In this document: positions 1,059 through 54,411 of the stretch, piece by piece
Layout of the letters: each line of letters starts with the position of its first letter
Position numbering within the stretch: the stretch's first letter is position 1
Virus record (IMG/VR): IMGVR_UViG_3300031521_000015
Reading direction: 5' to 3' (one strand)
DNA length: 64,000 nucleotides
DNA from: a virus
Position numbers and translations under genes: made by a program
The notes under the pieces: generated by a model
What the model saw: only the letters and a program-made list of their open reading frames with translations
The model's database searches: none
What the model was told of the DNA's origin: nothing

Positions 1059-1087
1059 TTGACAATGATATCCTAATAAGGTATTAT
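1059..1087 (+). promoter_or_regulatory. SigA-type promoter of endonuclease cassette A
   Basis: TTGACA(1059)-17 nt-TATTAT(1082). Confidence 0.8.
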
Positions 1088-1092
1088 TATAT

Positions 1093-1206
1093 TAGAAACT
1101 AGATAAGGAGTTATAAACCGTATCGAAAAGGAGTATCCGAACTCCCTGTTTCTATTTTTATAAATTTCGGAAAATAAATTAAAGTACGAATCGGAGGTAT
1201 TACATT
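1093..1206 (+). ncRNA. Structured 5' leader, copy A (three-stem junction, palindromic loop TTATAA, anti-SD pseudoknot)
   Basis: P1 1093-1099/1148-1154; P2 1102-1108/1118-1124; P3 1130-1134/1141-1145. Loop TCCGA is complementary to TCGGA at 1167 and at 1191 (overlapping SD). Confidence 0.75.
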
Positions 1207-2304
1207 ATGGAAACTAAAACATGTACTAAATGTGGACAAGAGTTCCCAATGTCTAAAGAATATTTTGAACCCAGAAAAGAATCAAAAGATGGATTCAGAA
1301 ATCAATGTAGAGATTGCAGAAATATCAATAGAAGAAATATATATGATGATAAATATAAAAGTGAAGATAATAGAAGATGGCAACAAGAAGAAATAGATAT
1401 ATTGAATAAATATTATGAAATTATGAGTAACAATGAATTACAAGAAAAGTATTTAAACACTAGAACTATTTCTCAAATAATAGATTATGCAAGTAAAAAA
1501 TTAAACTTACATAAACATGATGACGTTAAAATATATTATAGTGATGGTACAACAATGGGGTGGACAAAAGAAGATGATGAATATTTATTAAAAAACTATC
1601 CATCAACAAATTTTAAAGAAATGGAATTAGCTTTAGGAAAAAACAGTTTTACAATAACAGCTAGAGCTATTAAAAAGGGAATACAAAGAGATAATAAGTA
1701 TTCTGAAGAAGAAATAAATATCGTAAAAAAGTATTATGCAGACAATGAAAACAAATGGATTATTGATAATTTTATGAGTAGTAGAAGTAAGACTGAAATA
1801 ATAGGATTAGCAAATCGTTTAGGAATAAATAAAAATGATGAACTGATATTTCAAATAAGAGTTGATACTGGCTTAAAAAATTTAAAATGTATACCTGACC
1901 AAACAGGTTCTAATAGTCCTTGTTGGAAAGGTGGAACAGACGTATTAAGATTATATGTAAGAAACCATATTAGAAAATGGAACAAAGATAGTTTAAAATA
2001 TTATAATAATAAATGTTTTATTAGTGGAGATTCAGAAAATTTGATAATCCATCATGGATACTCTTTTAAAGACATATTGAATGAGACTATAAAAGAATTA
2101 GGACTTACTTATAATAATGATTTATCTAATTATAGTAATGGTGAACTTAGAAATATAATAGATTTATCAAATGAAAAACACTATAAATATGGTTTTGGAA
2201 TCCCTTTAACCAAAGAATTACATTTATTATTTCATAAAACTTATGGTTTTGTAAATTACACAAATGAACAGTTAATAGAATTTAAAAATAATTATGCTAG
2301 TTGA
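1207..2304 (+). CDS. Free-standing putative HNH homing endonuclease
   Basis: N-terminal CxxC..CxxC, repeated W-x2-EE-x3-L helical repeats, C-terminal CFISG..LIIHH..H..FH HNH-like motif; own promoter and terminator. Confidence 0.75.
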   Translation: METKTCTKCGQEFPMSKEYFEPRKESKDGFRNQCRDCRNINRRNIYDDKYKSEDNRRWQQEEIDILNKYYEIMSNNELQEKYLNTRTISQIIDYASKKLNLHKHDDVKIYYSDGTTMGWTKEDDEYLLKNYPSTNFKEMELALGKNSFTITARAIKKGIQRDNKYSEEEINIVKKYYADNENKWIIDNFMSSRSKTEIIGLANRLGINKNDELIFQIRVDTGLKNLKCIPDQTGSNSPCWKGGTDVLRLYVRNHIRKWNKDSLKYYNNKCFISGDSENLIIHHGYSFKDILNETIKELGLTYNNDLSNYSNGELRNIIDLSNEKHYKYGFGIPLTKELHLLFHKTYGFVNYTNEQLIEFKNNYAS

Positions 2305-2327
2305 TAATAAATAAGCTTCAATAACTG

Positions 2328-2352
2328 AAGGCGTGGTAACACGTCTTTTGTT
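2328..2352 (+). terminator. Intrinsic terminator after cassette A
   Basis: AAGGCGTG-GTAA-CACGTCTT plus T run. Confidence 0.7.
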
Positions 2353-2400
2353 GCGTTTATGCAAACTTTATTGATATAAAAAGGTGGTGTGGGCAAAAAG

Positions 2401-4252: not shown

Positions 4253-4310
4253 CCTTATTATCTATTTAATAAACAACAAAATAAACAAAGAAAGAAGGTG
4301 ATTAGCAAAA

Positions 4311-5939: not shown

Positions 5940-5954
5940 AAGTAGGTGATAAAT

Positions 5955-6131
5955 ATGAACATACTAGTTGCAAAGAGAAACGATTTAATTACTATTAGTG
6001 CAGGTAGTAATAGGTTACTAATTAATAAAGATAATGAATTGTTTGAAAAACTAAATAAATTATCAAAAGAAGAAATTAAAACTTGGTATGAAATTAATAG
6101 ATTTAATGACTTATTAGATTTAAATAATTAA
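5955..6131 (+). CDS. Small hypothetical protein
   Basis: AGGTGA RBS and ATG 5955 within ORF 5946..6131. Confidence 0.55.
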   Translation: MNILVAKRNDLITISAGSNRLLINKDNELFEKLNKLSKEEIKTWYEINRFNDLLDLNN

Positions 6132-6206
6132 ATATTCAATTAATATAATTGTTTATTATACGTATTTTAATATTTAATATACTCAACATTGAAAGGTGGT
6201 GATAAT

Positions 6207-7790: not shown

Positions 7791-7892
7791 TAAAACAAAT
7801 TAAATATTTATTAGTTGAAATGATATATATTAATAAATATTAAATAATAAATTAAAAATAATAACAAAATAAAGAAACTAGGAGTGATATAT

Positions 7893-13355: not shown

Positions 13356-13427
13356 TAAAGATATTTATTTGGGAAACCAAATTAATAAATAAATTAAATG
13401 AAAAAATTAAAAGGAGGAATAATAACA

Positions 13428-14537
13428 ATGAGTAAAATAATAGAAGACTCTTTAATGAAAGACGTTGTTGAATTTAAAATTGGTCGAGTATTTTTATATG
13501 ACGCTAAGACTAAAATAGAATATGCTACAGCAACGGTAAAAACTTCAGAAATGAATGCAAAAGCAGACCAAATAGAGGTAAAATCAGGTACGGATAACGA
13601 TATAACATATATTATCGATAAACCTAAAACAGTAGTATTTACAATAGAAGACGTTATTCAAGATCAAAACTTATTTGCATTAAAAATGGGTGATGGTATG
13701 AAGGACGCTGACGCTACGGTAGACGGATTTCATATGCCAGAATTATACGCAGTTGAATTATCAGGTGCAGATAAGATTGTAACCTTATCAGAAGAACCAA
13801 AATTAGGGGAAGAAGTTACTTTTACTAATCCAATAACAGGAAATCAAATTGATTCTGTAAATGTAACTCAAGATACAGTAAATAAAAAAGTATTTAAAAT
13901 AGTAGACGCTAGTATTGCAGTAGGAGATAATATTCAAGTTGGTGGATTTAAGTTCATAGGAAAACTTGGAGATAAGTATTTCAATCTAACATCATCTAGT
14001 TCAGTGCCAGAATTATTTGCAGTAGTAGAAATTCCATTAGTAAAACCTGATATGAGTGCATTATGCGATAAATTATATATATTGCCTCGTTGTAAACTAA
14101 GTGCAACTACTGATTCAAAAAATGAGTCCGATCCAAAAGAAGTAGATGCTAAACATGAATTAACAGTAATGAAACCAGTAGGTGCTAAATACTTAGGAAC
14201 TGTATATTATAAATTCCCAAATTCAGTTGCAGATCCAACTCCAATTACTGATTTAACAGGCATATCTACTTTAGCTGGTAAAATTGATTTAACATTCACA
14301 GCACCAGCAGATGCAGATAATATAGAAGTACAATATAAGTTATCAACAGATTTAAATTGGGTTGAAACAAATATAGGAGGAACTACAGGTGTAAGAGTTG
14401 CTACGGCTGTATCTGAAACCGACATTTCTAAAACAATATTAGGATTATCATCGGGTACATATGACGTAAGACTAGTTGTTGACGGTGGATTATATGAAGG
14501 AATAAGTAATTCAGTAACTTCAATTGTAGTAGCATAA
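13428..14537 (+). CDS. Major tail tube protein with C-terminal FN3-like domain
   Basis: AAGGAGG RBS before ATG 13428; C-terminal PITDL..IDLTFTAP..YDVRLVV..SNSV FN3 pattern. Confidence 0.7.
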   Translation: MSKIIEDSLMKDVVEFKIGRVFLYDAKTKIEYATATVKTSEMNAKADQIEVKSGTDNDITYIIDKPKTVVFTIEDVIQDQNLFALKMGDGMKDADATVDGFHMPELYAVELSGADKIVTLSEEPKLGEEVTFTNPITGNQIDSVNVTQDTVNKKVFKIVDASIAVGDNIQVGGFKFIGKLGDKYFNLTSSSSVPELFAVVEIPLVKPDMSALCDKLYILPRCKLSATTDSKNESDPKEVDAKHELTVMKPVGAKYLGTVYYKFPNSVADPTPITDLTGISTLAGKIDLTFTAPADADNIEVQYKLSTDLNWVETNIGGTTGVRVATAVSETDISKTILGLSSGTYDVRLVVDGGLYEGISNSVTSIVVA

Positions 14538-14623
14538 TAAAATTAAAATTAAACAATGAATAAATAGACATCTTTCTAGGTGTCTATCCTTGATTGTTTA
14601 AAAACAAATTATAAATAATCAAT

Positions 14624-14657
14624 TTTACAATAATACCTAAATATGGTATTATTGTAA
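14624..14657 (+). promoter_or_regulatory. SigA-type promoter of cassette B inside a perfect 13-bp inverted repeat
   Basis: TTTACA(14624)-17-TATTAT(14647); TTACAATAATACC 14625-14637 / GGTATTATTGTAA 14645-14657. Confidence 0.75.
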
Positions 14658-14763
14658 TGTAGGATAAATAAGGAAGTCATGAGCCTTATTGAAAAGGAGT
14701 ATTCCGAACTCCCTTCCTATATTACATATAAATCGGAAAATAAATTCAACGGAGGAATTAGTG
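14653..14763 (+). ncRNA. Structured 5' leader, copy B (palindromic loop TCATGA)
   Basis: P1 14653-14664/14715-14726; P2 14667-14673/14684-14690; P3 14696-14700/14708-14712. Loop TTCCGA pairs with TCGGAA 14733 or CGGAGG SD 14750. Confidence 0.8.
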
Positions 14764-16293
14764 ATGGAAGAAAGGGAATATCAACAAATTATTGAACAAT
14801 GGGAACTAGAACATAATGAATTAATTGAAAGTGGAACGTGTAGAAAGATATTTTTAGATGTATTACCTAAATCAAATCACAATGGTGGAAGTATAGATTG
14901 GAAAAATAGCAACGACTATAAAGTATATTTTATAGATAAAAATGTTGCAGGTTATGTAATGATAATAAATTATAGAAGTATTGGACAAGAACTACAAATA
15001 TCTTATCTACAAGATATATATAAAATAAATACAGGAGATTTTACACAATGTAAATTAGGGAATATAGTTGGTACAAAAACAAGTAATTTTAAATATAAAA
15101 TTGGGCAAATAATAAAAGATAATAAAAGAGATATAACAATAACCGATTATAAAAATGAAAAAGGAAAAAGTAAACTTTATAAATACAAATGCAATACGTG
15201 TGGATTTGATTGTGGAGAACATTATTCAATAAGAGATAAGGAATATAAAGATGAATTTTGGATACCAGAACATAATCTACTTAGTCGAGATACAGGTTGT
15301 GCTTGTTGTAATAGTACAATTATAGTAAAAGATATAAATAGCATATCTAAAACAAATCCAGAAATGGCGAAGTTCTTTTTAAATATTGAAGATACTTATA
15401 TTCATAGTGAATGTAGCAATAGAAAAGTATATGTAAAATGTAAAGAATGTGGGAAAATAAAGAAGAAAAAAGTTTCTGTAAATTCTTTTGTTTCAAATGA
15501 AAGTATTGGTTGTGAATATTGTGGCGATGGGAAAAGTTACGCTGAAAAATTCATGTTTAATATTTTAACTCAATTAAATATAGAATTTATTCCAGAGTAT
15601 TCTCCGGATTGGATAGGCAAAAGAAGATATGATTTTTACATTCCATCAATGAATTTAATTATAGAGATGGATGGTGGTTGGCATGAAAATGACAACAAAA
15701 TGAGTGGACAAAGTTCTAAGGAGTCAAAAGCAATTGATGATTATAAAGAAGAAATGGCTATGTTACATGGAATAAAGAAACCAATTAGGATTAATTGTTA
15801 TTTTAGAATTAGAAAATATGAAAATATAAAGAATAATATACTAAATAGCGATTTAAATTATTATTTTGATTTAAATAAAGTTGATTTTAAGAAAGCTGAT
15901 GAACAATCTCATAAGCCAATAGTAAAAGAAGCTTGTGAATTATGGAATAGTGGGATTAGAAGTACAGGGGAAATAGGTAAGATTTTAAAAATATCAAGTT
16001 CATGTGCACTTAGTTATTTGAAGAAAGGTAAAAATCTCGATTGGTGCGATTATACTGTAGAAGATAGTGAAAAATTCAAAATAGAACATATTAGAAAAGT
16101 CACAAAAAACAATTGTAAACCAGTTGAAATATTTAAAGATAATATAAGTCAAGGAATATTTCCATCAGCACAAGAATTAGATGAAAAAAGTGAAGAATTA
16201 TTTGGAGCAAAGCTAAACTTTTGTAAAATATCAGCAGTATGCCGAGGTAAAAAGCCACAATATAAAGGATATACTTTTAAATTTGTAGCCTAA
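14764..16293 (+). CDS. Free-standing putative homing endonuclease (Zn ribbons, PD-(D/E)XK-like nuclease, HTH, NUMOD1-like tail)
   Basis: Multiple CxxC, RYDFY..IIEMDGGWH, C-terminal ISAVCRG..YKGYTFKF. Real start GTG 14761 or ATG 14764 after GGAGG. Confidence 0.75.
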   Translation: MEEREYQQIIEQWELEHNELIESGTCRKIFLDVLPKSNHNGGSIDWKNSNDYKVYFIDKNVAGYVMIINYRSIGQELQISYLQDIYKINTGDFTQCKLGNIVGTKTSNFKYKIGQIIKDNKRDITITDYKNEKGKSKLYKYKCNTCGFDCGEHYSIRDKEYKDEFWIPEHNLLSRDTGCACCNSTIIVKDINSISKTNPEMAKFFLNIEDTYIHSECSNRKVYVKCKECGKIKKKKVSVNSFVSNESIGCEYCGDGKSYAEKFMFNILTQLNIEFIPEYSPDWIGKRRYDFYIPSMNLIIEMDGGWHENDNKMSGQSSKESKAIDDYKEEMAMLHGIKKPIRINCYFRIRKYENIKNNILNSDLNYYFDLNKVDFKKADEQSHKPIVKEACELWNSGIRSTGEIGKILKISSSCALSYLKKGKNLDWCDYTVEDSEKFKIEHIRKVTKNNCKPVEIFKDNISQGIFPSAQELDEKSEELFGAKLNFCKISAVCRGKKPQYKGYTFKFVA

Positions 16294-16343
16294 TAACTTA
16301 AACCAAGCAATAGAAAATTAAATAACTAAACACAAAACAACCT

Positions 16344-16375
16344 AAGGCATCTTATTAATTAAGGTGTCTTTTATT
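16344..16375 (+). terminator. Intrinsic terminator after cassette B
   Basis: AAGGCATCTTA/TAAGGTGTCTT stem plus T tail. Confidence 0.75.
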
Positions 16376-16421
16376 ATACCTAAAATGAAATACATTAATA
16401 ATATAAAGGAAGTGACAATAC

Positions 16422-16868
16422 ATGGCAGATTTTAATAGTCTAGAAGCATTCTATTCTCAATTACAAACGAATGTAGGAGAAATATTAAGAGATGAAGCAG
16501 AAAAAATAAAAGGAATTATACAAGACTATGTTATAACTGTTATCTATAGTTCATATTCTCCTCAAGTCTACTCTAGAACGTCAGAATTGTTAAATTCGAT
16601 TATAATTGATTATAAAATAGTAGGAAATGAATATATAGCAGAAATAAAACTTGATCCAAGTGCTATGCAATCTCCTTCAAACTCAGAAAATAAAAATCCT
16701 TTACCAATTACAGATATTGCAGAGATGTTTGCAGAAGGTCTAGGGTATAAAAGAGGTGGAAAAGAAATGGATATGATTGGAGATACTTATGAAAATTATG
16801 TGGTAACTGGAGATGCAATTAAAGATATTATTAGTATGCTAAAATCAAAAGGATATGATTTTTCATAA
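16422..16868 (+). CDS. Putative tail-completion/neck protein
   Basis: VY..Y.P.VYSRT.ELLNSI motif typical of siphovirus tail-completion proteins. Confidence 0.55.
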   Translation: MADFNSLEAFYSQLQTNVGEILRDEAEKIKGIIQDYVITVIYSSYSPQVYSRTSELLNSIIIDYKIVGNEYIAEIKLDPSAMQSPSNSENKNPLPITDIAEMFAEGLGYKRGGKEMDMIGDTYENYVVTGDAIKDIISMLKSKGYDFS

Positions 16869-21525: not shown

Positions 21526-21809
21526 TTAAAAAACACCTCCTTTTAAGTATTTTGCCATAAAAACACTTATTAATAATTTATATGGTAAAATACTTAAAAG
21601 AATTAGGTAGAACATTATTAGGGGACACAAGACTAATATTATATAGTTCAAAATTTATAGTTTTAATAAAATGTAAATCCCTTTATTTATATTTTAACTT
21701 TCTCTATACAATACAGTGATTATATTATACCATAAATGTATAAAAATGGATATGAAATTGAAAATAAAATTGATTATAATTTGCTCGTAAGAGTGTTATA
21801 ATATATAGT

Positions 21810-21931
21810 AGGAAGAAATAAATATAATAAGTAGTCGACGATTTGTTATATTGAATGGGTTAGCTCCAATTAACCTTTCTTCCTTTTTTATTTAATATTG
21901 GAGAAATAAATTATATTGGAGGAATTTAAGA
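21810..21931 (+). ncRNA. Structured 5' leader, copy C (palindromic loop GTCGAC)
   Basis: Follows TGtTATAAT 21794-21802. P1 21810-21818/21876-21884; P2 21821-21832/21841-21852; P3 21858-21863/21870-21875. CTCCAAT pairs with ATTGGAG 21897 or 21915 (SD). Confidence 0.8.
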
Positions 21932-23551
21932 ATGGAAGGAAATAGACAATTAAATCAAGAAGAATATATGGAGATTATTGAAAAATTTAAGGAAAATAAT
22001 AGAGAAGATTATGAGAGTGGTAAATGTAAAAAGATATTTTTGGAATGTTTGCCTAGATGGGGAAAAGGTGGAAAAGCAAAAGAAGGTAGTATAAATTGGA
22101 TTGAATCAGTGAATAAAAATTATTATATATTTTTTATATATGGTGTTCATGAGGATTATATAAGATTAATAGATTATTCATATGATAAACAATTAAAAAT
22201 AACAATTGAATATTATGGTGAAAACTTAAGTTTAAATGCAGGGAGCATTAATAATTGTCAAATAGGCAAACTATTCAATATAAGGAATAAAGAATATTTA
22301 TATAATAGAGGTGATATTGTCAAAGGAAAGCATTCAAATTTATTGATATTAGAACAATTAATTATTAAATCAAACTATAGTTATAAAGTTAAAGGATATA
22401 AATATAAATGTTTGTCATGTGGAGATATAGATGAAATTTCTCAAAGAGATATTCTACGTGGAGTAGGTTGTGAAATTTGTTGTCCAAATTCTCAAAAAGT
22501 CGTAAAAGAGATAAATTCTATATGGAAAACGAACCTAGAACTAGTTAAATACTTTGTAAACGAAGAAGATACTTGGAAATACACAATTGGTAGCCATAAA
22601 AAAGTGTGGTTTAAGTGTTTGGACTGTTATTATAGAAAAGAAATGACTATTGATAATTTTGTAAGGAACGGATTTTCATGTAATAAATGTGGGGATGGTA
22701 TTTCAGTGCCAAATAAAATAATGTTTAATGTGTTAGAACAACTAAATGTTCAATTTGAAGCAGAAAAGAAAGTAGAATGGTGTAAATTTTTATATAAAAA
22801 TAAACGAAGACAAGGTTATTATGATTTCTATTTTGAGCAAGATGGCAAAAAATACATTATAGAAATGGATGGGGGTCTAGGTCATGGTAAGGGGAATTTT
22901 AAGAATAATATGACTGCTAAAGAATCACAATTTATTGATGATGAAAAAGATAGATTAGCTATTGAACATGGAATTGAAGTAATTAGAGTTGACTGTGACC
23001 ATCGTATGTACTATGGATTTGATTATATAAAAAATAATATATTATCTAATGTTAATATAAATAATTTGTTTTTATTAGCCAATATTGATTGGAGTAAGGT
23101 TTTGAAATTTGTTTCGTCAAGTAGAATCAAAGAAGCTTGTGATTTATGGAATATCGGTATTCATAGTACAACTGAAATTTCCAAAATTATGAAGATGAGC
23201 AGAACAACAATTTGCACGTATTTAAAAATAGGATTTGAACTGAAAATAACAGATTATACTGTGGAAATTTCAAAAAATATTAATAATAATAATACTATAG
23301 AAAGAAATAAACAAAAGTTAAGTACTAAAATAATTTGTATAGAAAATGGTATTATATTTAATTCCATTTCTGAATGTGAATTAAATAGTTTTAAAATATT
23401 TGGAATAAAAATGTTTAATAGTGCTATAACTAAAGTATGTCAAGGGAAACAGCAACATCATCAAGGATATCAATTTAGATACTTAAAAGACCTTACCGAA
23501 GAACAAATAAAAGAAATTCAAGAAAATGCAAAATTAAATCAAGCAATATAA
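21932..23551 (+). CDS. Free-standing putative homing endonuclease, paralogue of 14764 and 30821
   Basis: Same N-terminus (KKIFLECLP..INW), CxxC ribbons, YYDFY..IIEMDGGLGH, NUMOD1-like end. Confidence 0.75.
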   Translation: MEGNRQLNQEEYMEIIEKFKENNREDYESGKCKKIFLECLPRWGKGGKAKEGSINWIESVNKNYYIFFIYGVHEDYIRLIDYSYDKQLKITIEYYGENLSLNAGSINNCQIGKLFNIRNKEYLYNRGDIVKGKHSNLLILEQLIIKSNYSYKVKGYKYKCLSCGDIDEISQRDILRGVGCEICCPNSQKVVKEINSIWKTNLELVKYFVNEEDTWKYTIGSHKKVWFKCLDCYYRKEMTIDNFVRNGFSCNKCGDGISVPNKIMFNVLEQLNVQFEAEKKVEWCKFLYKNKRRQGYYDFYFEQDGKKYIIEMDGGLGHGKGNFKNNMTAKESQFIDDEKDRLAIEHGIEVIRVDCDHRMYYGFDYIKNNILSNVNINNLFLLANIDWSKVLKFVSSSRIKEACDLWNIGIHSTTEISKIMKMSRTTICTYLKIGFELKITDYTVEISKNINNNNTIERNKQKLSTKIICIENGIIFNSISECELNSFKIFGIKMFNSAITKVCQGKQQHHQGYQFRYLKDLTEEQIKEIQENAKLNQAI

Positions 23552-24891: not shown

Positions 24892-27800
24892 ATGGCATAT
24901 CAAAATTCAATTAGTTTAGGGATAAAATTACAACCCACTAGTGAGATACAAACTGAATTAAAAACTGCAATAGAACAATTAAATAAAAATTCAAGTATAG
25001 ATTTAAAAATAGATACAACACAGGTCAATAAATCATTAAAGGAATTTAGTAATACATTAGATAATATTAATAATAAATTAAAGAATGGATTTAATTTTCA
25101 AGGGGTTTTTAATAATCAAGCAATTGGTGTAGAAGTAGTAACAAATAAATTAAAAGAAGAACAAAAAGCAATTGAACAAACTGAAAATGCTATGAAAACT
25201 TTATCTAGTACTAAAATGGGCAATTCTGATTCTAATGGTAATATAACAGAAACATTAAAAACTGTCGAACAATTGCAAATTGGTATTGGTAATACAACTA
25301 AATTAACTACTGATTTAGCAACTGGTTTAAAAACTGCTAGTAATACAGAAAATTTTCAAAAATTAGAAAATATAATTGATAATTTACAAAGCAAATTAAG
25401 TAAGTCTAGTAATAATAAATTTATAAATGAATCAGTAATTACTGAATTACAAAATCGATTAAATTCAATAAATACAAATTCTGCCGACAAAGAATTTAAA
25501 GAATTACAAACTACTATTAACAACTTAGGCAGTTCAGATAGCCAAATAGTTCGTTTGCAAAATACAATAAGTAAAATGGAATCTAGCCTTACTTCTATGA
25601 AAAGCAAGTATGGAAGTTTAGTAGGTGATAGTAGTTCAAAATCTTCACTAGATGCTTATATATCTGAAATAGAAAAGTTAAAAACATTAATGGCTAGTTT
25701 GCAAAATGGAGGCACTATTAGTGGAAGTAAGTTAGCCTCTGAATTAAATCAAGGAACTGAAGCGAGCAGAAATCTATCTAATTCGGTAAAAAATAGTAGT
25801 AATGCATTAAAATTAGCGACTACAGATAGTGAAACGTTTGGACAATCAATTAAACGTGCATTAAGCAATACTGGACTTTACCTTGGAACTTATCAAGCAG
25901 TTCAAATGTTATCTAATTCTTTTAGAGACGCTATCACTTATGTAGTTCAATTAGATAGTGCAATGACAAATTTAAAAAAAGTAACTCAAGAAACAAATCA
26001 AACATATTCAAGTTTTTTAAATCAAGCACATGATATTGCTATGGAATATGGTTCTCAGGCTGATAAAGTTGTTGATGCAACTACTTCTTGGGCAAAAACA
26101 GGAGAATCTTTAAAAAATGCTACAGAATTAGCTAAAAACACTATGCTATTAACAAAAGTTGGTGATATTGATAGTGTCGCAATGGCTCAACAATATATGA
26201 TTGCCCCACTAAAAGCATTTCAGATAGAAGCAAGTAAAAGTATAACATTAATTGATAAATATAATAATATTTCTAATAATATGGCTACAAGCACTACAGA
26301 TTTAGGCGAGGCCCTTTCAAAATCTGCAAGTAGCATGTCTACTGCTGGAAATACCTTAGACCAAACATTGGCTATAATATCAACTGCTGAATCACAAACA
26401 AAATTAGGTGGAGATGTTGTGGGTCAAGCCCTAAAATCTGTCTCCCTTAGAATAGCATCATTTAAAGATGAGAATGGAGAATTAATACCTAAATTTGAGA
26501 AACAGTTAAGTGCTTTAGGTGTTACTATGAGAGATACCACAACTGGACAAATACTACCAACTTTTGACATATTACAACAAGTTGGAGAAAAATTCAAAAC
26601 AATGAATACAAACGATAAATTAAATGTAAGTGAACTTTTAGGTGGTAAATTACAGGCAAATGTAATTAGTTCCGTATTGAATAATGTAGATGAATTGAAT
26701 AGAGCGTATAGTTTAGCACAAAATAGTTCAAATAGTGCGATGAATGAATTTAAAACCTATCAACAAGGAGTACAATATAGTATTGACCAATTGAAAGAAT
26801 CTATTTCAAATATGTATAAAGAATCAATGAACTCATCTAGTTTAAAATCGTTTGTAGACTCTTTAACAATAATGGTTAGCACATTTGGAAATTTAAAAAC
26901 GGTAATAGCAGTTGCAACTACGGCTTTTTTATTATTTAAAGGGCAAGCTATTACAAGTGCAATTGCCAGTTTAGGTTCGTATATATCAACTTTATTTTCA
27001 GTAGTGAAAGCAGAAGGTGCATTAACTGTTGCGACAGCAGAATTAGATATAGCTCTATCTACTAATCCTTTTGGATTAATTGCAATGGCTATTACAGGAG
27101 TTATTGTTGTTATGGACGCTTTAACAACTTCCCAAAATAACTTAAAACAATCTAATGCAGAATACGTACAATCACTACAAACTAGTAATCCAAACCAAGG
27201 ACAAGAATTATTAAATAATTATAAAAAATTAGAGTCTGAGCTATCAACATTAAAACAAGGTACACAAGAATATAAAACTAAAGAAGAAGAATTAGCAACT
27301 GCACAACAATCGTTAATAAGTTTATATCCTCAAGCTTCTTCGGCAATAGATGAAAATACAGGTAAAAAGAAATTAAATGCAGATGCGACACAAAAGTTAA
27401 TTGACAAAGATAAAGAATTAGCACAGGCAAAAGCAATTGAAACATTGAGCAATAACAAAGTTGGCAATACTGACGATGTAGCAAAGATGGTTGAAGCGTA
27501 TAAAAAAGCACAGGAAGAAATGAAAAGATTGACTGAGGATTATAATAATGGAGTAACAAGTCAAGAAGTAATTTCAATAGGAGCTAACGGACCTCATAAG
27601 AGTTCTGTTAGTACAGATAGTCAATTAAAAGATACAACCAAAGAATATGAAGATTATAAACAAAAAATATTAGCAGTTCAGTCTGCATTGAGTTCTCTAG
27701 ATAGTAAGAACACAAAATTTGCAGGTTCTTTAGATGAAGTAAATAATGCAATGGGAAATAGTTCAGAAAAAACTGATGATAACACTAAGGTTATAAATGA

Positions 27801-30627
27801 TAATACTCAAGCAAAAAATGATAATACAAATGCAGATAATGGTGCAAATACTCAAGCAAATGCAATAACAAAAGCAACAAAGGCTTATTCAGAATCAACT
27901 CAGGCAATAGCACAAGCACAATCTTATCTCGATAAACTTAATAAATCACAAGCAGTAACGCCTGCTTTAGTTAAACAAATGAGCAAAGCATATGGTACAG
28001 ATGTTACAGAAAGTTTAAATAGTGCTTCCACGGCACAAGAATATTTAACTGGCAAGATAAAAGAACAACAAACTGCACAACAGGATGCTTATTTAATAAT
28101 GAAACAGGACGACGAACAATTTTACCAAGACAAAATTAAAAACAATGAAGGATATGAAAATCAAATAAACTCATTTTTAAATAGTTTTGTTTCTGATAGT
28201 AATGGTGCATACAATGTTGACTTGTCCAATTATACTACATTAAACGGGCTCAAGAGTGGTGCTATGGGGGAATTGAGCATTGCTGTAGATAGTTGGATGA
28301 GTAAGTATGTAGATGTCACTGCGTCTGGATATAATGTAGATTATAATAATTTCACAAATTTGATTTCAGCAAAGTCAGAAATATTAAAACAATTTGCAGG
28401 ATCTATGGCTCAATTTTGGGACGATACTAGTCAAGCGTTTACTGAAGGTGCTTATGGTGGAATAGATTTATCTGGTGGAGCAAATAATGAACAATATGAA
28501 GATTTTACAAAAAAGGCTTCGGGAATATTAGCTACAGGAGATAAAATTAGAAGTGCTTATAAAGATTTGGATAAAATATATGCAGGTGGTGGACTGAATC
28601 TTGATAAATTTGGTGGAGGCATGGGAAATTCTGACTTCAGTGGTACGGGTAGCCCAAATAAAGGTTCGTCTGGGAAATCAGATGCCGAAAAAGAAGCCGA
28701 AAAAGCACAAAAATTAGCAGAAGAAATATCAAAATTAAAAAGTGAAATAGAACCTGACAGGTATCTAGATTTCAATAATGCAGTAAAACAAGCAGATAAT
28801 GAATTATCTTTAAATAAAACATTATTAGATTCATTAAAAGAAGGTAGCCCAGAATACCAACAAGCAGAGTTAAAAAATATAGAGATATATAAACAAAAAC
28901 AAACTGCTTTAAAAAGTTTAAATGATGAACAAAAAAAAGATGCAGAAGAGAAAAAAACAAAATTGGCTAATCTTGGCTTTGAGTTTGACGCCAATGGCAA
29001 ATTAATAAACAGCCAACAAAAATTATTATCTTTACAAGAACAAGTAAATTCAATGGGTGGTAATACAGAAGCTGATAAGCAAGCAAAAGAAGATGCAATA
29101 AAAAATCTTAAAGATATTAATGATGAAACTAAAAAATATATAGAGTTAGTCGGAGATAAAATTCCTAAAACTACTGCTGAATGGCAAGAGCAAGCTAATG
29201 AAATTTCTAAAGTTAACGAACAAATTAAGAAAGCCAACATAGATATTCTTAATAATGCGAAAGAAGAATTAGCACAAGATATTCTAAAAGACGCACAAGA
29301 AAAAGTTGATGAATTAAAAAAACAAGCAGATGAATCAAGAGAAGATGCAAAGCAATCGTTAGAAGATGAAAAGACAAGTAAATTAGCACTTTGGGACGAA
29401 AAGATTAAATCTAAACAAGCTGAATTAGATGCTATGAATGATGAAACGTCTGATAATGAAACTAAACTCAAGAAACTTAAAGTAGAGTTGGCTAACTTAC
29501 AAAGAGATAATTCTACAGAAGCACAAGGAAGAATACAAGATGTAAATACCCAGATTACCGATTTACAAAAAACTATTAAAAAAGATGCATTATCCAAAGA
29601 AATTGATAGTTTAAATAATCAAAAGCAAATTCAGAGCGATAATTACGATCAGCAACTAAGCGATTTAGAAAAAGCAAATAAAGAACAAGAAGCAGAAGAT
29701 GAAAAACATTATTCGGAGTTATTAAATGAGAAGAATGCCTATAATAAAGCTGAAAAAATGATTAATAAAAATCAACAAAGCGATATGTATGATTTATACT
29801 CAAAATATAGCGAAGATTATAAAAAGATGGGTGTAGATTTATCAACAAGCGTTGACGCTTCTTTGAAAAAAATAACTGAAGCTATTAGTAATTTAAACAA
29901 TGTTAAAATTAGAAACAATAATTCTAGTGATGGTGGAAACGGTGATGGTGAGTCATCATCAAACCATTATGAAAATACAACTAGTAGTGGAACGCATTAT
30001 ACTGATATAGGTTCTGGAATAATATCAGATCATCCATTAACCAATGATGAGATAAACACTATAAATAAAGGGTCAAGTGGTAGTTCTAGTTCAAGTAAAC
30101 CATCTACAACTGTTACTAATAGCAATGGTTCTACAACTACTACTCATAGTGATGGAACTAAAAGTTATAGTAACGGAGATTATACAGATTCCAATGGATA
30201 TTATCATACAGCTGGATATGATACAGGTGGAAGAACTCCAAGTAATATTGATTCTAATGGTAAAATAGGTATATTACATGCAAGTGAAAAGATATTAAAC
30301 GCCAAAGATACTGTTCAATTTGATAGTTCTATGTTGAAAATTGATGAAATTTATAATTCCCTTAAAGAGTCGGGGGCTTTACTTGGTCAGTTATCACAAT
30401 CATATTCTAATATTGGCAATTTAGCTATGCCAACACTAGGTATTGATTTGAATAAAATAGCAAATAGTGTTGTTAATAATAGCAATGCTGATAATAGTAG
30501 TTCTAGTAATATAAATATAAATAATAATTATCAAGTCGACGCTACTTCTGATTTTAATACAAAAAACTTTAGTAATAATCTAGATAAACAGTTAAAACAA
30601 ACATTGAGAAAATACGGAAAAATATAA
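24892..30627 (+). CDS. Tape measure protein (TP901-type core)
   Basis: 1911 aa coiled coil; LDSAMTNLKKVT..G..LKS.SLRI core; TM-like segments; C-terminal YDTGG..GILH..EKIL motif. Confidence 0.92.
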   Translation: MAYQNSISLGIKLQPTSEIQTELKTAIEQLNKNSSIDLKIDTTQVNKSLKEFSNTLDNINNKLKNGFNFQGVFNNQAIGVEVVTNKLKEEQKAIEQTENAMKTLSSTKMGNSDSNGNITETLKTVEQLQIGIGNTTKLTTDLATGLKTASNTENFQKLENIIDNLQSKLSKSSNNKFINESVITELQNRLNSINTNSADKEFKELQTTINNLGSSDSQIVRLQNTISKMESSLTSMKSKYGSLVGDSSSKSSLDAYISEIEKLKTLMASLQNGGTISGSKLASELNQGTEASRNLSNSVKNSSNALKLATTDSETFGQSIKRALSNTGLYLGTYQAVQMLSNSFRDAITYVVQLDSAMTNLKKVTQETNQTYSSFLNQAHDIAMEYGSQADKVVDATTSWAKTGESLKNATELAKNTMLLTKVGDIDSVAMAQQYMIAPLKAFQIEASKSITLIDKYNNISNNMATSTTDLGEALSKSASSMSTAGNTLDQTLAIISTAESQTKLGGDVVGQALKSVSLRIASFKDENGELIPKFEKQLSALGVTMRDTTTGQILPTFDILQQVGEKFKTMNTNDKLNVSELLGGKLQANVISSVLNNVDELNRAYSLAQNSSNSAMNEFKTYQQGVQYSIDQLKESISNMYKESMNSSSLKSFVDSLTIMVSTFGNLKTVIAVATTAFLLFKGQAITSAIASLGSYISTLFSVVKAEGALTVATAELDIALSTNPFGLIAMAITGVIVVMDALTTSQNNLKQSNAEYVQSLQTSNPNQGQELLNNYKKLESELSTLKQGTQEYKTKEEELATAQQSLISLYPQASSAIDENTGKKKLNADATQKLIDKDKELAQAKAIETLSNNKVGNTDDVAKMVEAYKKAQEEMKRLTEDYNNGVTSQEVISIGANGPHKSSVSTDSQLKDTTKEYEDYKQKILAVQSALSSLDSKNTKFAGSLDEVNNAMGNSSEKTDDNTKVINDNTQAKNDNTNADNGANTQANAITKATKAYSESTQAIAQAQSYLDKLNKSQAVTPALVKQMSKAYGTDVTESLNSASTAQEYLTGKIKEQQTAQQDAYLIMKQDDEQFYQDKIKNNEGYENQINSFLNSFVSDSNGAYNVDLSNYTTLNGLKSGAMGELSIAVDSWMSKYVDVTASGYNVDYNNFTNLISAKSEILKQFAGSMAQFWDDTSQAFTEGAYGGIDLSGGANNEQYEDFTKKASGILATGDKIRSAYKDLDKIYAGGGLNLDKFGGGMGNSDFSGTGSPNKGSSGKSDAEKEAEKAQKLAEEISKLKSEIEPDRYLDFNNAVKQADNELSLNKTLLDSLKEGSPEYQQAELKNIEIYKQKQTALKSLNDEQKKDAEEKKTKLANLGFEFDANGKLINSQQKLLSLQEQVNSMGGNTEADKQAKEDAIKNLKDINDETKKYIELVGDKIPKTTAEWQEQANEISKVNEQIKKANIDILNNAKEELAQDILKDAQEKVDELKKQADESREDAKQSLEDEKTSKLALWDEKIKSKQAELDAMNDETSDNETKLKKLKVELANLQRDNSTEAQGRIQDVNTQITDLQKTIKKDALSKEIDSLNNQKQIQSDNYDQQLSDLEKANKEQEAEDEKHYSELLNEKNAYNKAEKMINKNQQSDMYDLYSKYSEDYKKMGVDLSTSVDASLKKITEAISNLNNVKIRNNNSSDGGNGDGESSSNHYENTTSSGTHYTDIGSGIISDHPLTNDEINTINKGSSGSSSSSKPSTTVTNSNGSTTTTHSDGTKSYSNGDYTDSNGYYHTAGYDTGGRTPSNIDSNGKIGILHASEKILNAKDTVQFDSSMLKIDEIYNSLKESGALLGQLSQSYSNIGNLAMPTLGIDLNKIANSVVNNSNADNSSSSNININNNYQVDATSDFNTKNFSNNLDKQLKQTLRKYGKI

Positions 30628-30707
30628 AGAAATTTATTAAAACAATTATCTTATTTGTAATTTATTAGTTATAATTACTCTTAAAGTATGTTATAATATA
30701 TAGATAT

Positions 30708-30820
30708 GGAAGGATAGATTGAAAAGTCGCGAGTTCAATTGATAAGCTCTCTCCAATGAGTTTCCTTTCCTTTTATACATATTGGAGCAATAAATTAAAT
30801 TATATTGGAGGAATTTATTA
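30708..30820 (+). ncRNA. Structured 5' leader, copy D (palindromic loop TCGCGA)
   Basis: Follows TGtTATAAT 30689-30697. P1 30708-30714/30763-30770; P2 30717-30723/30734-30740; P3 30745-30749/30758-30762. CTCCAAT pairs with ATTGGAG 30781 or 30804 (SD). Confidence 0.8.
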
Positions 30821-32401
30821 ATGGAGAGAATTAGCCAAGAAAAGTATTTAGAAATTATAAATAAATTTAAAGAAGAAAATAAAGAAGATTATGAGAATAG
30901 TAAAATTAGAAAAGTATTTTTAGATATTTTACCACATGGAGGAAAAGGTAAAAAGGGAGGAAATATATCTAATAAATGTATTAATTGGGATTACTCAAAA
31001 AACTTCAAAATATATTTCATATACAAGGACAGAGAAGGATATATTAAAATTATTGATTATGAAAGAGATAAAAAGAATTATATATTAATAGAATTCAATG
31101 ATAAGGAAGATGAGGTTTTTACTTGTGATTTTCAAAGATGTAAAATAGGAAAAATATTAGGTAAAGCAACTGGAGATTTTAAAATAGAAATAGGAATGAT
31201 ATTTAAAGATAATAAAAGAAATATCACCATTACTGATGCAAAGAAAGATGAAAAAGGGCTAAAATATTATAAATATAAATGTAACGAGTGTGGGTTTGAA
31301 TGTGGCGAACATTATTCTACTAGAGATAAAATATATAAAGAAGAGTATTGGATAACAGAAGGAAATTTAAAAGATGGAAAAGGTTGTTCTTGTTGTTGTA
31401 GTTCATCACATATTGTAGTCAAAAATATTAATTCGATTGTTATTACTGATCCTTGGATGATACCTTATTTTCAAGGAGGATATGAGGAAGCTAAGAAATA
31501 TACTGCTAGAAGCAATGAAAACATAATACCGTTATGTCCTGACTGTGGAAAAGTAAAATCAAAGAAAATGAGGATAAATACAATTTATGAACATCATTCA
31601 ATAGCTTGTATTTGTAGTGATAAATTTCCCTATCCCGAAAAATTTGTTTTTAGTATTTTGATACAATTGGGGCTAGATTTTGAAACACAATTGAATAAAT
31701 CTTCGTTTAATTGGTGTAAAAAATACAAATATGATTTTTATTTTGAATATAACAATGAACAGTATATTGTAGAAACTCATGGTATGCAACATTATGAAGA
31801 AGGATTTACGCATTTAAAAGATTCTAGAATGCTTAAAGAAGAACAAGAAAATGATAGATTAAAGAAAGAATTAGCTTTAGCAAATGGTATTAAAGAAGAA
31901 AATTATATAGTGATAGATTGTAGGAAAAGTACATTAGAATGGATTAATAATAGTATATTAAACAATGAAAAGATGATAACTAAATTTGATTTGAGTAATA
32001 TTGATTGGATTCAATGTTCAGAATTTGCATGTATTAATTTAGTTAAAAAAGTTTGTGAAATTAAACATGACAACTGTGAAATGACAACTACAGATATAGG
32101 AAATATTCTTAACATAAAAGGTCAAACTGCGAGAAAATATTTAAAGCAAGGTTCTGAAATATGGGATTGGATTAATTATGATGCAAAAGAAGAAATGGAA
32201 AAAGCATTGGGTAAAAAAGTAGAAATATTTAAAGATGGAATAAGTTTAGGTGTTTTTAAGTCTATAATTGAATTAGAAAGACGAAGTTTAGAAATATTTG
32301 GAGTTAAATTATTTAATGCTAATATAGGGAAAGTTTGTCAAGGGATAAGTGGACATCATCATGGATTTACATTTAAATATATTGATTCGGAAATATATTA
32401 A
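30821..32401 (+). CDS. Free-standing putative homing endonuclease, paralogue of 14764 and 21932
   Basis: CxxC ribbons, KYDFY..IVETHGMQH, NUMOD1-like IGKVCQG..HHGFTFKY. Confidence 0.75.
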   Translation: MERISQEKYLEIINKFKEENKEDYENSKIRKVFLDILPHGGKGKKGGNISNKCINWDYSKNFKIYFIYKDREGYIKIIDYERDKKNYILIEFNDKEDEVFTCDFQRCKIGKILGKATGDFKIEIGMIFKDNKRNITITDAKKDEKGLKYYKYKCNECGFECGEHYSTRDKIYKEEYWITEGNLKDGKGCSCCCSSSHIVVKNINSIVITDPWMIPYFQGGYEEAKKYTARSNENIIPLCPDCGKVKSKKMRINTIYEHHSIACICSDKFPYPEKFVFSILIQLGLDFETQLNKSSFNWCKKYKYDFYFEYNNEQYIVETHGMQHYEEGFTHLKDSRMLKEEQENDRLKKELALANGIKEENYIVIDCRKSTLEWINNSILNNEKMITKFDLSNIDWIQCSEFACINLVKKVCEIKHDNCEMTTTDIGNILNIKGQTARKYLKQGSEIWDWINYDAKEEMEKALGKKVEIFKDGISLGVFKSIIELERRSLEIFGVKLFNANIGKVCQGISGHHHGFTFKYIDSEIY

Positions 32402-32445: not shown

Positions 32446-32478
32446 AGAACCCATTTAAATATAATGGGTTCTTTTATT
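32446..32478 (+). terminator. Intrinsic terminator after cassette D
   Basis: AGAACCCATT/AATGGGTTCT plus T run. Confidence 0.75.
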
Positions 32479-47678: not shown

Positions 47679-47698
47679 TAGAAAGGATGTGAAAATAT

Positions 47699-51052: not shown

Positions 51053-51063
51053 GGAGGAATAAG

Positions 51064-51768: not shown

Positions 51769-51799
51769 ACAAATTAAATGATGAAAGAGAGATGATATA

Positions 51800-52333
51800 A
51801 TGTCAACACAAAAATTTATAACTATTGATAGCACAGGTAAAAAGATATTAAGAGGTGCTGTTGATACAAGTTTAGGTTCAGCAGACAGTGGAAAAATTGT
51901 AGGATTAAACGTAGACGGAAAAGTGGATATTTCTATGATTCCGACTTCCGTGGGAAAAGTAGGATGTATTTTTGCTTTATCAGAACCATTATCAGCAGGT
52001 GATTGGGTAAATGTTTTTACAGACGGAACAGATTACAAAGCAAGATTAGCTGATGTAACTGATTCAGCTAAAGTATGTCATGGTTTTACTACTGCTAATG
52101 GTATTGCTGGAGATAGTGTACTAATCATGTTTGAAGGATTGAACGATTATTTGCCAACAGTAGGACTAGTAAATGGTGCTAGTTATTTCTTAGGAACTCT
52201 TGGTAAAGCAGTTGCAACACCAGATATGACAACTGCTTCTAAATTCGTACAACCATTGGGATATTGTGTTAATACAAGTGATAGTACATTAGCAATAAGG
52301 TATGAACAAGATGAAGTTATTTATTTAGAGTAG
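51800..52333 (+). CDS. Putative structural protein, paralogue of 51064 C-domain
   Basis: GKIV.LN.DGK.D.S.IP; E.LSAGD.VN...A.LAD; FVQ.LG. Confidence 0.6.
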   Translation: MSTQKFITIDSTGKKILRGAVDTSLGSADSGKIVGLNVDGKVDISMIPTSVGKVGCIFALSEPLSAGDWVNVFTDGTDYKARLADVTDSAKVCHGFTTANGIAGDSVLIMFEGLNDYLPTVGLVNGASYFLGTLGKAVATPDMTTASKFVQPLGYCVNTSDSTLAIRYEQDEVIYLE

Positions 52334-52337
52334 GTGA

Positions 52338-52754
52338 ATGAATGTGAAATTTATAACTTTAAATAGTAATGGAAATAAAGTTTTAAAATCAATACCAACA
52401 AAAACAATTGTATTTCAATTCTTTGAAGTATCCGATAAGATAAAAGATCTAATAATTAGATGTCCTTATAATGGTAAGATAGTTAAAATAAGTGCAAGTA
52501 CAAATAATATAGGGACTGTAGATACACAATTAATAGTAGAAAAGATAAGTAAGGGTGATTTTAAAAATCAACTAGATACATGGTCTAGTGTGTTAAGTAG
52601 TAACTTATTTATTAGAACTGAACAAGTAGTTGATGATGGAAGTTATTTAGTCGGTTCTGATATTGTTAGTATTGGTGATTATTTTAGAGTTAATTTAATT
52701 GGTGCTAGTGACTTGAAAGGATTAAATTTAGAAATTGAAATAGAAGTGATTTAA
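52338..52754 (+). CDS. Hypothetical beta-rich protein
   Basis: N-terminus KFITL.S.G.K.L shared with 51800. Confidence 0.65.
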   Translation: MNVKFITLNSNGNKVLKSIPTKTIVFQFFEVSDKIKDLIIRCPYNGKIVKISASTNNIGTVDTQLIVEKISKGDFKNQLDTWSSVLSSNLFIRTEQVVDDGSYLVGSDIVSIGDYFRVNLIGASDLKGLNLEIEIEVI

Positions 52755-52777
52755 ATAATAAATTAATATAAAATTAT

Positions 52778-52806
52778 TTGACAATATCTCTCAAAAGGAG
52801 TATATT
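52778..52806 (+). promoter_or_regulatory. SigA-type promoter of cassette E
   Basis: TTGACA(52778)-17-TATATT(52801). Confidence 0.75.
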
Positions 52807-52812
52807 TATAGT

Positions 52813-52923
52813 AGGGGATAGCAAGGAGTAATTAACCATGTCAATAAGAGTATTATCCTAGATACTCTTCCCTTTTTACATATATAATGCTAGGATAACA
52901 AATTAAATTATTATAGGAGATGA
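52813..52923 (+). ncRNA. Structured 5' leader, copy E (palindromic loop TAATTA)
   Basis: P1 52813-52818/52869-52874; P2 52821-52826/52836-52841; P3 52847-52853/52862-52868. Loop TATCCTAG pairs with CTAGGATA 52890 or TAGGAG SD 52914. Confidence 0.75.
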
Positions 52924-54411
52924 TTGGACATGTTATTGACAAAGGAAGTTGAAGTAGAACTAAATGGAACTAATGTAAAGCATTATGAAGAATTGGGGTA
53001 TGAAATACTTAGAGAAAAGAAATGGAAGAAATGGTCAATTCCCACGGGTACTAAAATAAAAGTAAAAATTGAAGATGTGCCAAAAGGTTCTCATACAGAA
53101 GTGCAATGTTTGTGTGATTATTGTTTAGAAAAAGGTATAAGGACAGTAATTAATAAAAGATATCAAACACACATAAGAGAAAATAAAGATATTTGTGGTA
53201 AATGTAGTAAGAATAAAATAAAAGAAATACATGCGTTAGAAATTCAAACAAAAGTAAAAGAAACTTTTGACTTAGATATAACAAAGGATGGATATTATGA
53301 TTTAAAAAATGTTCAAAAAGTTATTGAATATTTTATATCAAAAAATAATAGATTTCCTAATACTAAAGAAATGTTATCTGTTTTGTTTATTAGTAATTCA
53401 ATTAGTAAAATGCATGGAGGTATGACCAATATTCAAAAAACTATGGGATATAAAAAAGAAGATTTATTGGTTGATGATAGTGGTATGTCTAATAGATCAG
53501 TTTATGAATATTATACAGCTATGTTTTTGTTAGGATTTAATATTTCATTTAAAAGAGAACAATCTCCATTTCCAAAAGGAGAAGGATTATTCAGAAGTGA
53601 TTTTACTTTTTATTTAGAAAATAATAAAACTATTCATTGTGAAGTATGGGGATACCCTAAAGAATTAAAGTCTAGTTTAGGAATAGCATATAATAAAAAT
53701 AGAAAAATCAAAGAAATATTATATGAAAAACATAATGTAGAATATATATCAATAGAACACGATGTTTTTATAAATGGTCTTGAACATATGCAAACAGAAT
53801 TAAAAAATATATTTAATGATTTTATTATAAATAAAGATTTAGTGTTGTCAGTAGAATATTTATTACCACCATACAAGTTATCTGATACTCAAATATTAGA
53901 AAGAATGATGAAATTTAGTGAAGATAAAAATACTCTTCCATCCTGTAGCCATTTAAGAGATATCGGGCAAAGAATGTTATATGAAGAAGTAATAAAAAGA
54001 TATAAAACTTATAAAACATTTGCAGATAAATTTGATAAAAAATTACTTTCTGATGTATATTGGGACACAGAAAAAGCACATAAATCTATATATGATATAT
54101 GTAATGAATTAAATAAAGATGTATTTAGTAACAATCTATTAGAGAAAGTAATAAAAAATAATAATGAATATAGTGGATTGGGTAGGTTTATTAGTTACCA
54201 AGGTGATTTTGTTGATTATTTTTTAGATTTTATAGAAATAAAAATAATCAATGAAAATGAAATGATAGCTGATGATATTATGAAAAAACTAGTTAATTTA
54301 ACATTTGGTAAATATCCACATAGAAAAAACAAAGTGACAGATTTCCAAATAGAAAAATCAAAATATCTATTAAACTTAATAAAAGAAAAGCAATTTAAAG
54401 AGGTAGTTTAA
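52924..54411 (+). CDS. Free-standing putative homing endonuclease (distinct PD-(D/E)XK-like type)
   Basis: N..HYE.LGY and CDYC..CGKC N-terminus; RS.YE..FRSDF..IHCEVWG nuclease-like motif; own promoter and terminator. Confidence 0.65.
   Translation: MDMLLTKEVEVELNGTNVKHYEELGYEILREKKWKKWSIPTGTKIKVKIEDVPKGSHTEVQCLCDYCLEKGIRTVINKRYQTHIRENKDICGKCSKNKIKEIHALEIQTKVKETFDLDITKDGYYDLKNVQKVIEYFISKNNRFPNTKEMLSVLFISNSISKMHGGMTNIQKTMGYKKEDLLVDDSGMSNRSVYEYYTAMFLLGFNISFKREQSPFPKGEGLFRSDFTFYLENNKTIHCEVWGYPKELKSSLGIAYNKNRKIKEILYEKHNVEYISIEHDVFINGLEHMQTELKNIFNDFIINKDLVLSVEYLLPPYKLSDTQILERMMKFSEDKNTLPSCSHLRDIGQRMLYEEVIKRYKTYKTFADKFDKKLLSDVYWDTEKAHKSIYDICNELNKDVFSNNLLEKVIKNNNEYSGLGRFISYQGDFVDYFLDFIEIKIINENEMIADDIMKKLVNLTFGKYPHRKNKVTDFQIEKSKYLLNLIKEKQFKEVV

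Follow-up and report, generated by a model that had tools for sequence, protein, structure and literature searches.

What does a structured leader RNA do when it stands in front of several, partly unrelated genes of one phage, and has such an RNA been described before? We asked this of a 64,000-nucleotide (nt) stretch of viral DNA, IMG/VR record IMGVR_UViG_3300031521_000015 (hereafter the window), which has a GC content of 27.9%, comes from peat metagenomes and is the part of a large phage genome that carries its structural and lysis genes. Five of its open reading frames (ORFs), called A to E here and some of them homing-type nucleases, are each preceded by such a leader, in which the loop of one hairpin is complementary to two downstream sites, X1 and X2. 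We think it fairly probable, judging from sequence, that the leader is a cis-acting gate on translation in which this loop competes for X1 (open) and X2 (blocked). The leaders themselves are best described as an AT-rich, phage-borne variant of the Rfam family int-alpA (RF02996) that falls formally below the family threshold.

All five leaders have a single layout in common, as an earlier note on the window had proposed: a promoter, the 5′ strand of a closing stem P1, TA, hairpin P2, a short linker, hairpin P3, the 3′ strand of P1 (P1′), a second linker, X1, an AAYAAATT box, and X2 on the Shine-Dalgarno (SD) sequence. A covariance model built from the five copies with this junction structure (R1) returns exactly five matches in the window, at 93, 87.5, 47.6, 111 and 85.9 bits for A to E, and the next best match scores 18 bits. 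For comparison we used five syntenic IMG/VR phage contigs of 21–121 kb, whose CheckV completeness of 12–49% implies genomes of about 175–250 kb (in the labels below, G001–G003 are related contigs, L019–L031 leader copies in these relatives and L150–L269 canonical int-alpA loci). In them R1 finds 13 further copies and a rebuilt model, R2, finds 14; the match at G003:6216 resembles a terminator plus AAYAAATT box rather than a true leader. An extra, weaker leader-like match of R2 (40 bits) lies at G001:C1:21968-22086. A DNA pattern scan based on the tail yielded no new leader copies among the matches listed, and a first loose descriptor (a hairpin loop against the flank of the box) was discarded for its lack of specificity in AT-rich DNA.

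An automatic parse recovers the order P1-(UA)-P2-(3–5 nt linker)-P3-(0–2 nt)-P1′ in 16 of 16 copies, with UA as the segment between P1 and P2 (J1/2) in 14 of them. The junction letters UA/GAAAA/CU are exact in A, B and L020 and read UA/GAAAA/GA in L028; C, D and E keep UA, carry the linkers GAAUG, GAUA and CAAUA, respectively, and have no segment between P3 and P1′ (J3/1). Folded alone, eight of nine cores, leader A included, adopt the three-way junction as their minimum free energy (MFE) structure. MAFFT-only alignments gave no RNAalifold consensus, and the structural alignment was taken from the covariance model instead. In this alignment of 17 sequences, whose fitting to the model favours the structure, shuffling lowers the share of paired cells from 83.5% to 62.5% and the covariation score from 0.671 to 0.298 (none of 500 shuffles reaching the original score), and changes on both sides occur in 16 of 17 stem pairs. 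Sliding the 3′ partners by one to three columns brings the score to 0.26 or below. Pairing is thus kept while the stem sequences change, far beyond both the shuffled and the slid controls.

The P3 loop is complementary to X1, a short way past the junction and just before the AAYAAATT box, and to X2, just after the box. Across the window and its relatives the sites fall into eight classes, TCGGA(A), ATTGGAG, CTAGGATA, GGTCGA, ATTGAGA, GGTTAAC, ATTGRTAA and GGTTGAT, and from class to class the loop varies in step with X1 and X2. With each class represented once, cognate loop/X matches sum to 117 nt, whereas mismatched pairings reach a mean of 62.7 and a maximum of 71 nt over 14,833 derangements, and shuffled loops a maximum of 79. 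X1 is found in all 16 phage copies. The predicted loop:X2 complementarity is 5–11 nt long and lies within 13 nt of the start codon, the 3′ end of X2 ranging from 1 nt inside the start codon (−1) to 13 nt before it, so that X2 always falls inside the 30S footprint, either on the SD itself or in the stretch that separates it from the start codon. Because several classes in the relatives are not SD-like (GGTTAAC, ATTGAGA, GGTCGA and ATTGRTAA), the loop/X match is not merely a product of SD/anti-SD bias, and X appears to be an address inside the ribosome footprint rather than simply an anti-SD target. The placement of the five leaders, their conserved stem pairing and a loop that covaries with both sites, all claimed by the earlier note, are therefore upheld; its view of X as an SD target stands in that X2 sits on the ribosome-binding site (RBS) and needs widening in that X is not always SD-like.

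Whether the RNA is new is answered by leader A. The earlier note had not recognised it as a described element. Searched alone, leader A matches RF02996 over model positions 1–71 of 71, covering 1092–1170, at 34.4 bits (E = 5e-6), just under the gathering cut-off of 35.8 bits, and it has the same junction letters and the same arrangement of loop, X1 and X2, which removes the claim of novelty. The match is seen only on the short stretch: Rfam scans of the whole window gave no match, whether the gathering score or an E value of 5 was taken as the limit, nor did RF02996 against the five related contigs, where no first-look candidate scored. The RF02996 consensus reads P1(8 bp)-UA-P2-GAAAA-P3(loop AaaCCuUua)-CU-P1′-U run-uaAgGG, the AAGGG tail of the model being complementary to its CCUU loop, and Rfam files the family as 'Gene; sRNA', that is, as a small RNA (sRNA). 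Canonical examples were fetched from bacterial genomes by a pattern for P3 and the segment before it (J2/3), and 33 have the full layout. In nearly all of these, X1 lies a few bases past P1′ and X2 is placed on the SD of the ORF that follows, and the loop/X variants covary here as well (CCTTCA/TGAAGG, CCCTG/CAGGG, CCGTG/CACGG, CAGCCT/AGGCTG, CCCTC/GAGGG and CCCTA/TAGGG); most have only 3–4 U after P1.

The likeness thus extends from the P1-UA-P2-GAAAA-P3-CU-P1′ junction, exact to the letter in leaders A and B, through a U/A-rich tail and the ensuing site complementary to the P3 loop, to the second such site, nearly always present at the SD of the downstream ORF, and to the setting in mobile DNA with variable cargo genes downstream. 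The two groups differ in composition, with the phage leaders at about 28% GC and canonical int-alpA GC-rich, and in cargo, which consists of homing-type nucleases in the phage and hypothetical island genes in the canonical case. Furthermore, phage leaders have 6-nt palindromes in their P2 loops and an X that need not be SD-like, and they carry the AAYAAATT box between X1 and X2, where canonical leaders have a short spacer, often a hairpin presenting X2 in its loop. The ORFs after canonical int-alpA encode diverse hypothetical proteins with no nuclease domains, one of them a DUF6387 protein. In many proteobacterial int-alpA leaders X2, as the SD, occupies the loop of a small GC hairpin right after X1, for example cgc-TTGAAGGA-gcg, and P3 could meet this hairpin loop to loop. 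The 5′ untranslated region of P22 pid gave no int-alpA match. The family is reportedly a product of the comparative-genomics survey of Weinberg et al. 2017, in whose main text (PMC5737381) it goes unnamed. In the literature searched we came across no functional study of the family. For one of many catalogued bacterial and phage RNA motifs in that position, the phage copies are informative: each genome holds many diverged paralogues, and their X sites have drifted from a plain SD, so that the match of loop, X1 and X2 cannot be put down to SD/anti-SD bias.

Some other identities were set aside. A hammerhead or other small ribozyme was dismissed for want of a conserved catalytic core and of an Rfam match, and a tRNA-like element and a group I intron fragment were dismissed from the layout and the absent Rfam match. 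A riboswitch, which is not among these, would need a conserved ligand pocket and a ligand-dependent alternative fold; only the short junction motifs are conserved, and no metabolic gene context points to a ligand.

How, then, would the leader work? Transcription from a host-type promoter would start at the 5′ strand of P1, and the RNA would fold into the three-way junction of P1, P2 and P3. The apical loop of P3 would then pair, over 5–11 base pairs, with either X1 or X2 at nearly equal strength: on X2 it would block 30S binding, and on X1 it would leave the ribosome site free, so that the leader would set or gate nuclease translation from leader-containing transcripts. The blocking loop lies about 45–60 nt upstream, and in most copies the duplexes predicted for loop:X1 and loop:X2 differ little in energy, at about −6 to −15 kcal/mol, which is what a competition between two partners needs. 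What the sequences show is the structure, its covariation, the complementarity, the modularity and the likeness to int-alpA; that the leader acts on translation, which way it would switch and that the box serves as a promoter are what we infer. The two-state switch of the earlier note fits this design with two predicted pairing partners. The match of loop, X1 and X2 gives a hypothesis testable by mutation, in which the motif would gate the translation of whatever gene follows it.

A precedent exists in T-even phages, whose homing nucleases, I-TevI included, combine an RBS-sequestering hairpin with an internal late promoter that bypasses it (PMC2988022). Here, transcripts started at the AAYAAATT box, if it is a promoter, would be without the blocking loop, a bypass as in T4 I-TevI. 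The T4-type control of I-TevI, I-TevII, I-TevIII, segB and Aeh1 mobE resembles the present arrangement in that RNA upstream of a selfish nuclease gene can pair with its RBS, in that a compact promoter-like box with an ATAAAT core separates the inhibitory element from the RBS, and in that the genes are embedded in late operons. The T4 inhibitor, however, is the 5′ strand of one local hairpin, whereas the phage leader uses a loop within a three-way junction and adds the decoy partner X1; the two show no homology, and the box here is a candidate promoter. The leaders would extend the T4 theme of selfish nucleases under tight post-transcriptional control.

Several results weigh against this account or against parts of it. 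X1 is nearer to the loop than X2 and as strong, and a pure cis model accordingly predicts a mostly open ribosome site. The palindromic P2 loops and the U-rich run that follows P1 in most copies are left unexplained by such a model. The full-length MFE folds of B and D differ from the junction, and single-sequence folding energies are no better than those of shuffles (z from −0.6 to +0.65); because these stabilities are ordinary, the support for the structure is comparative and not thermodynamic. Membership of int-alpA comes from the one sub-threshold match; leaders B and C, searched singly, gave no RF02996 match at E up to 10. In the reverse direction, R1 and R2, whose AT-rich tails penalise canonical matches, found nothing in the canonical int-alpA loci with or without filters.

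The palindromes and the U-rich run bear most directly on the best-placed rival. Of 11 distinct P2 loops, 10 contain a 6-nt palindrome, where shuffled loops would give 1.2; only L031 has none. The loops are 7–10 nt long and the palindromes mostly purine-flanked, which suggests that leader copies may dimerise through kissing loops. A T-rich run, read by eye from the tails, directly follows P1 in 11 of 16 phage copies. Both features would fit a trans-acting sRNA, as a rival or an extension of the cis model, a reading we regard as rather doubtful, in which a junction RNA of about 65–80 nt ends at the U-rich run and its P3 loop pairs with X2, and also X1, of nuclease mRNAs that arise by read-through or from the AAYAAATT box. 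Free copies would dock on the leader of the mRNA via the self-complementary P2 loops, and two P3 loops would occupy both X sites, the presence of which is otherwise hard to explain; the sRNA class in Rfam and the U run after P1 in the RF02996 consensus point the same way. Yet P1 closes a multi-branch structure and not a simple terminator hairpin, the U run is missing in B, L024, L030 and L031 and mostly amounts to 3–4 U in canonical examples, and the fixed short distance to the start codon suits a leader.

The window palindromes lie at 1111–1116, 14677–14682, 21834–21839, 30727–30732 and 52829–52834; TTATAA, TCATGA, GTCGAC, TCGCGA and TAATTA occur in the window, and TTGCAA, TTCGAA and TGATCA in relatives. 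GGCC, GCGC or CGCG is found in the P2 loops of many canonical int-alpA RNAs. The retroviral dimerisation initiation site is a kissing loop of this kind, and the self-complementary, mostly purine-flanked 6-nt P2 loop resembles it; the context is another one, L031 departs from the pattern, and dimerisation is only predicted for the leaders.

Elements of the cis and trans readings might be combined for the whole int-alpA class, a proposal that we put forward tentatively and hold to be rather unlikely. The RNA would recognise itself and so govern the translation of selfish and accessory genes: leaders, or else short copies of them that end by termination, would pair via their P2 loops, two P3 loops would clamp X1 and X2 of one mRNA, translation would fall as the RNA, and hence the copy number of the element, rises, and AAYAAATT would provide a timed bypass. 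If true, this would supply a mechanism for an orphan RNA family and a new dose-sensing RNA device.

Improbable in our view is that the leader is a structural 5′ cap or insulator without switching, in which the junction and a loop–X1 pseudoknot would stabilise the 5′ end of the mRNA or insulate the cassette from upstream transcription or translation, and the likeness of X2 would be a by-product. The 5′ end of the predicted transcript is indeed buried in P1, and the cassettes sit in late operons between terminators; but loop and X2 vary together across the canonical family and across eight phage classes, also where X2 is not SD-like, and a by-product would not persist in this way. Very improbable is the last rival, that the nuclease of each cassette represses the cassette's own promoter by binding to DNA operators, namely X1, X2 and the inverted copy within P3: although X1 and X2 flank a promoter-like box and I-TevI binds an operator over its late promoter (PMC2988022), unrelated proteins have the same X class and at least five X classes occur within one protein family, the inverted copy in every case sits in a hairpin loop on stems that covary, and canonical int-alpA RNAs precede non-nuclease genes.

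The preferred reading, a gate acting in cis, gains support from the independence of leader and cargo on which that last argument draws. A near-identical A-type leader precedes an HNH-like ORF in the window and a GIY-YIG ORF in G001, and the TCGGA class is common to HNH-like A, phrog_4538 B and the GIY-YIG copy L020. At the site of cassette C, relatives carry, behind similar leaders, a phrog_4538 gene (G001), a GIY-YIG plus NUMOD gene (G002) and a gene for a DUF4046 protein (G003). Since unrelated ORFs follow like leaders and vice versa, the leader is a portable module, found before GIY-YIG, HNH-like, NUMOD/PvuRts1I-like and unknown ORFs, and recombination has joined it to nuclease ORFs of unrelated kinds. 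One leader class before unrelated ORFs argues for a mechanism at the level of RNA and against a protein-specific one, and the lack of agreement between X class and protein speaks against DNA operators specific to each nuclease. Several unrelated homing-nuclease families in Gram-positive-type phages would then have one portable regulatory module in common.

The earlier note's claim that unrelated nuclease families reuse the leader is thus borne out; its description of all five genes as endonucleases is carried by B, C and D, weakly by A, and for E by a lead only. B, C and D are paralogues with 34–39% identity that belong to PHROG 4538 and contain HNH or homing-endonuclease, treble-clef zinc-finger and NUMOD-like tail regions. 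For gene A the PHROG matches, to HNH endonuclease and to endonuclease VII, reach only 1e-6 to 1e-7, and there is no Pfam match above cut-off and no PDB match. Gene E has no Pfam or PDB match; its look-alikes in a protein atlas are viral clusters, some members of which have HNH_repeat or DUF7487 plus DUF559, a lead that E may be a nuclease.

The AAYAAATT box, which the earlier note had listed within the leader layout, is present in all five leaders, yet it is not their signature. The window has 94 copies where 51 would be expected; between genes there are 29 on the plus strand against 4.6 expected, with 6 on the minus strand. The box usually lies 17–31 nt before start codons, often directly after terminators, for example before the starts at 7884, 8448, 17206, 35048, 38785, 44993, 51800, 54470 and 55212; plus-strand box positions include 7846, 8416, 17175, 35015, 38751, 44968, 51768, 54438 and 55173. 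In relatives it is conserved before homologous non-nuclease genes. The T4 late promoter is TATAAATA, with a core, ATAAAT, that equals the core of the box. The box is therefore treated here as a phage-specific candidate for a promoter-like signal, perhaps a late one.

Each of the five units lies on the plus strand, and the distance from the end of the −10 box to P1 is 6–9 nt in all of them. Four end in terminator-like hairpins (at 2327, 16344, 32446 and 54397), and we therefore describe them as promoter–leader–ORF–terminator cassettes inside late operons. The promoters of A and E are sigma-70-like and are the best plus-strand sites in their 20-kb scans, whereas C and D have TGnTATAAT extended −10 boxes. 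In cassette A, the promoter-like site at 1059–1087 (TTGACA, 17 nt, TATTAT; an 11/12 match, best in the scan of 1–20 kb) is conserved in the relative L020. The junction spans 1093–1154, with P1 at 1093–1099/1148–1154, P2 at 1102–1124 and P3 at 1130–1145 (loop 1135–1140); the tail (1166–1195) holds X1 at 1166–1171, the box AATAAATT at 1173–1180 and X2 at 1191–1195 on the SD. Gene A (1207–2304, ATG at 1207) encodes 365 amino acids (aa) with a zinc-ribbon/HNH-like N terminus and is followed by its hairpin at 2327–2348.

Cassette B has a promoter-like site at 14624–14652 (TTTACA, 17 nt, TATTAT with a TG extension) and a leader at 14651–14766 comprising P1 at 14651–14664/14715–14729, P2 at 14667–14690, P3 at 14696–14712 (loop 14701–14707), X1 at 14733–14738, the box at 14739–14746 and X2 at 14750–14758. 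The true start of gene B is the ATG at 14764 and not the TTG at 14689 given in the ORF list; the gene (14764–16293) encodes 509 aa of the phrog_4538 family with an HNH/homing-endonuclease region, and the terminator lies at 16344–16370.

In cassette C (21793–21934) an extended −10 box, TGtTATAAT at about 21793–21801, precedes a leader with P1 at 21810–21818/21876–21884, P2 at 21821–21852, P3 at 21858–21875 (loop 21864–21869), X1 at 21897–21903, the box at 21905–21912 and X2 at 21915–21921; gene C (21932–23551, ATG at 21932) encodes 539 aa of the phrog_4538 family, with a treble-clef zinc finger (DUF4379) and a NUMOD-like C terminus. Cassette D (30691–30823) likewise begins with an extended −10 box, followed by P1 at 30708–30714/30763–30769, P2 at 30717–30740, P3 at 30745–30762 (loop 30750–30757), X1 at 30781–30787, the box at 30789–30796 and X2 at 30804–30810; gene D (30821–32401, ATG at 30821; 526 aa, phrog_4538 family/homing endonuclease) ends before a terminator at 32446–32472. 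For cassette E, the promoter-like site at 52778–52806 (TTGACA, 17 nt, TATATT) is the top match of the 44–64 kb scan, and the leader (52813–52932) comprises P1 at 52813–52818/52869–52874, P2 at 52821–52841, P3 at 52847–52868 (loop 52855–52860), X1 at 52890–52897, the box at 52897–52904 and X2 at 52914–52918; gene E (52930–54411, ATG at 52930) encodes 493 aa with no assigned family, and its terminator is at 54397–54423.

Beyond the five related contigs, blastn against GenBank phages did not find the leader, Clostridium phage BG3P, the nearest named relative of the nuclease, has none, and Clostridium phages c-st and D-1873 have one 36-nt stretch in common with the window and nothing more. IMG/VR locus searches with proteins A and E found no relatives, and low-coverage peat contigs compared with the window gave only paralogue cross-matches and no clean empty-site joints.

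An empty site is seen for cassette B in the related contigs. In the window the cassette stands directly after an AAYAAATTA box, between the terminator of the gene at 13398–14537 and gene 16422; in G001, G002 and G003 a terminator, an AAYAAATTA box and an SD lead straight to the homologue of gene 16422 (window 14564–14660 and 16340–16425 compared with L016:3120-3335, L063:2760-3040 and L011:300-700). A degenerate copy of the box, AATACATTAA, is left before gene 16422 in the window. Elsewhere, G001 L002:4676-6542, compared with window 24892–30627, shows homology to the N-terminal ~430 residues of a 1911-aa protein, followed by an A-type leader and a GIY-YIG plus NUMOD gene (L020); in G001 this large gene may have been split, or its end replaced, by a cassette.

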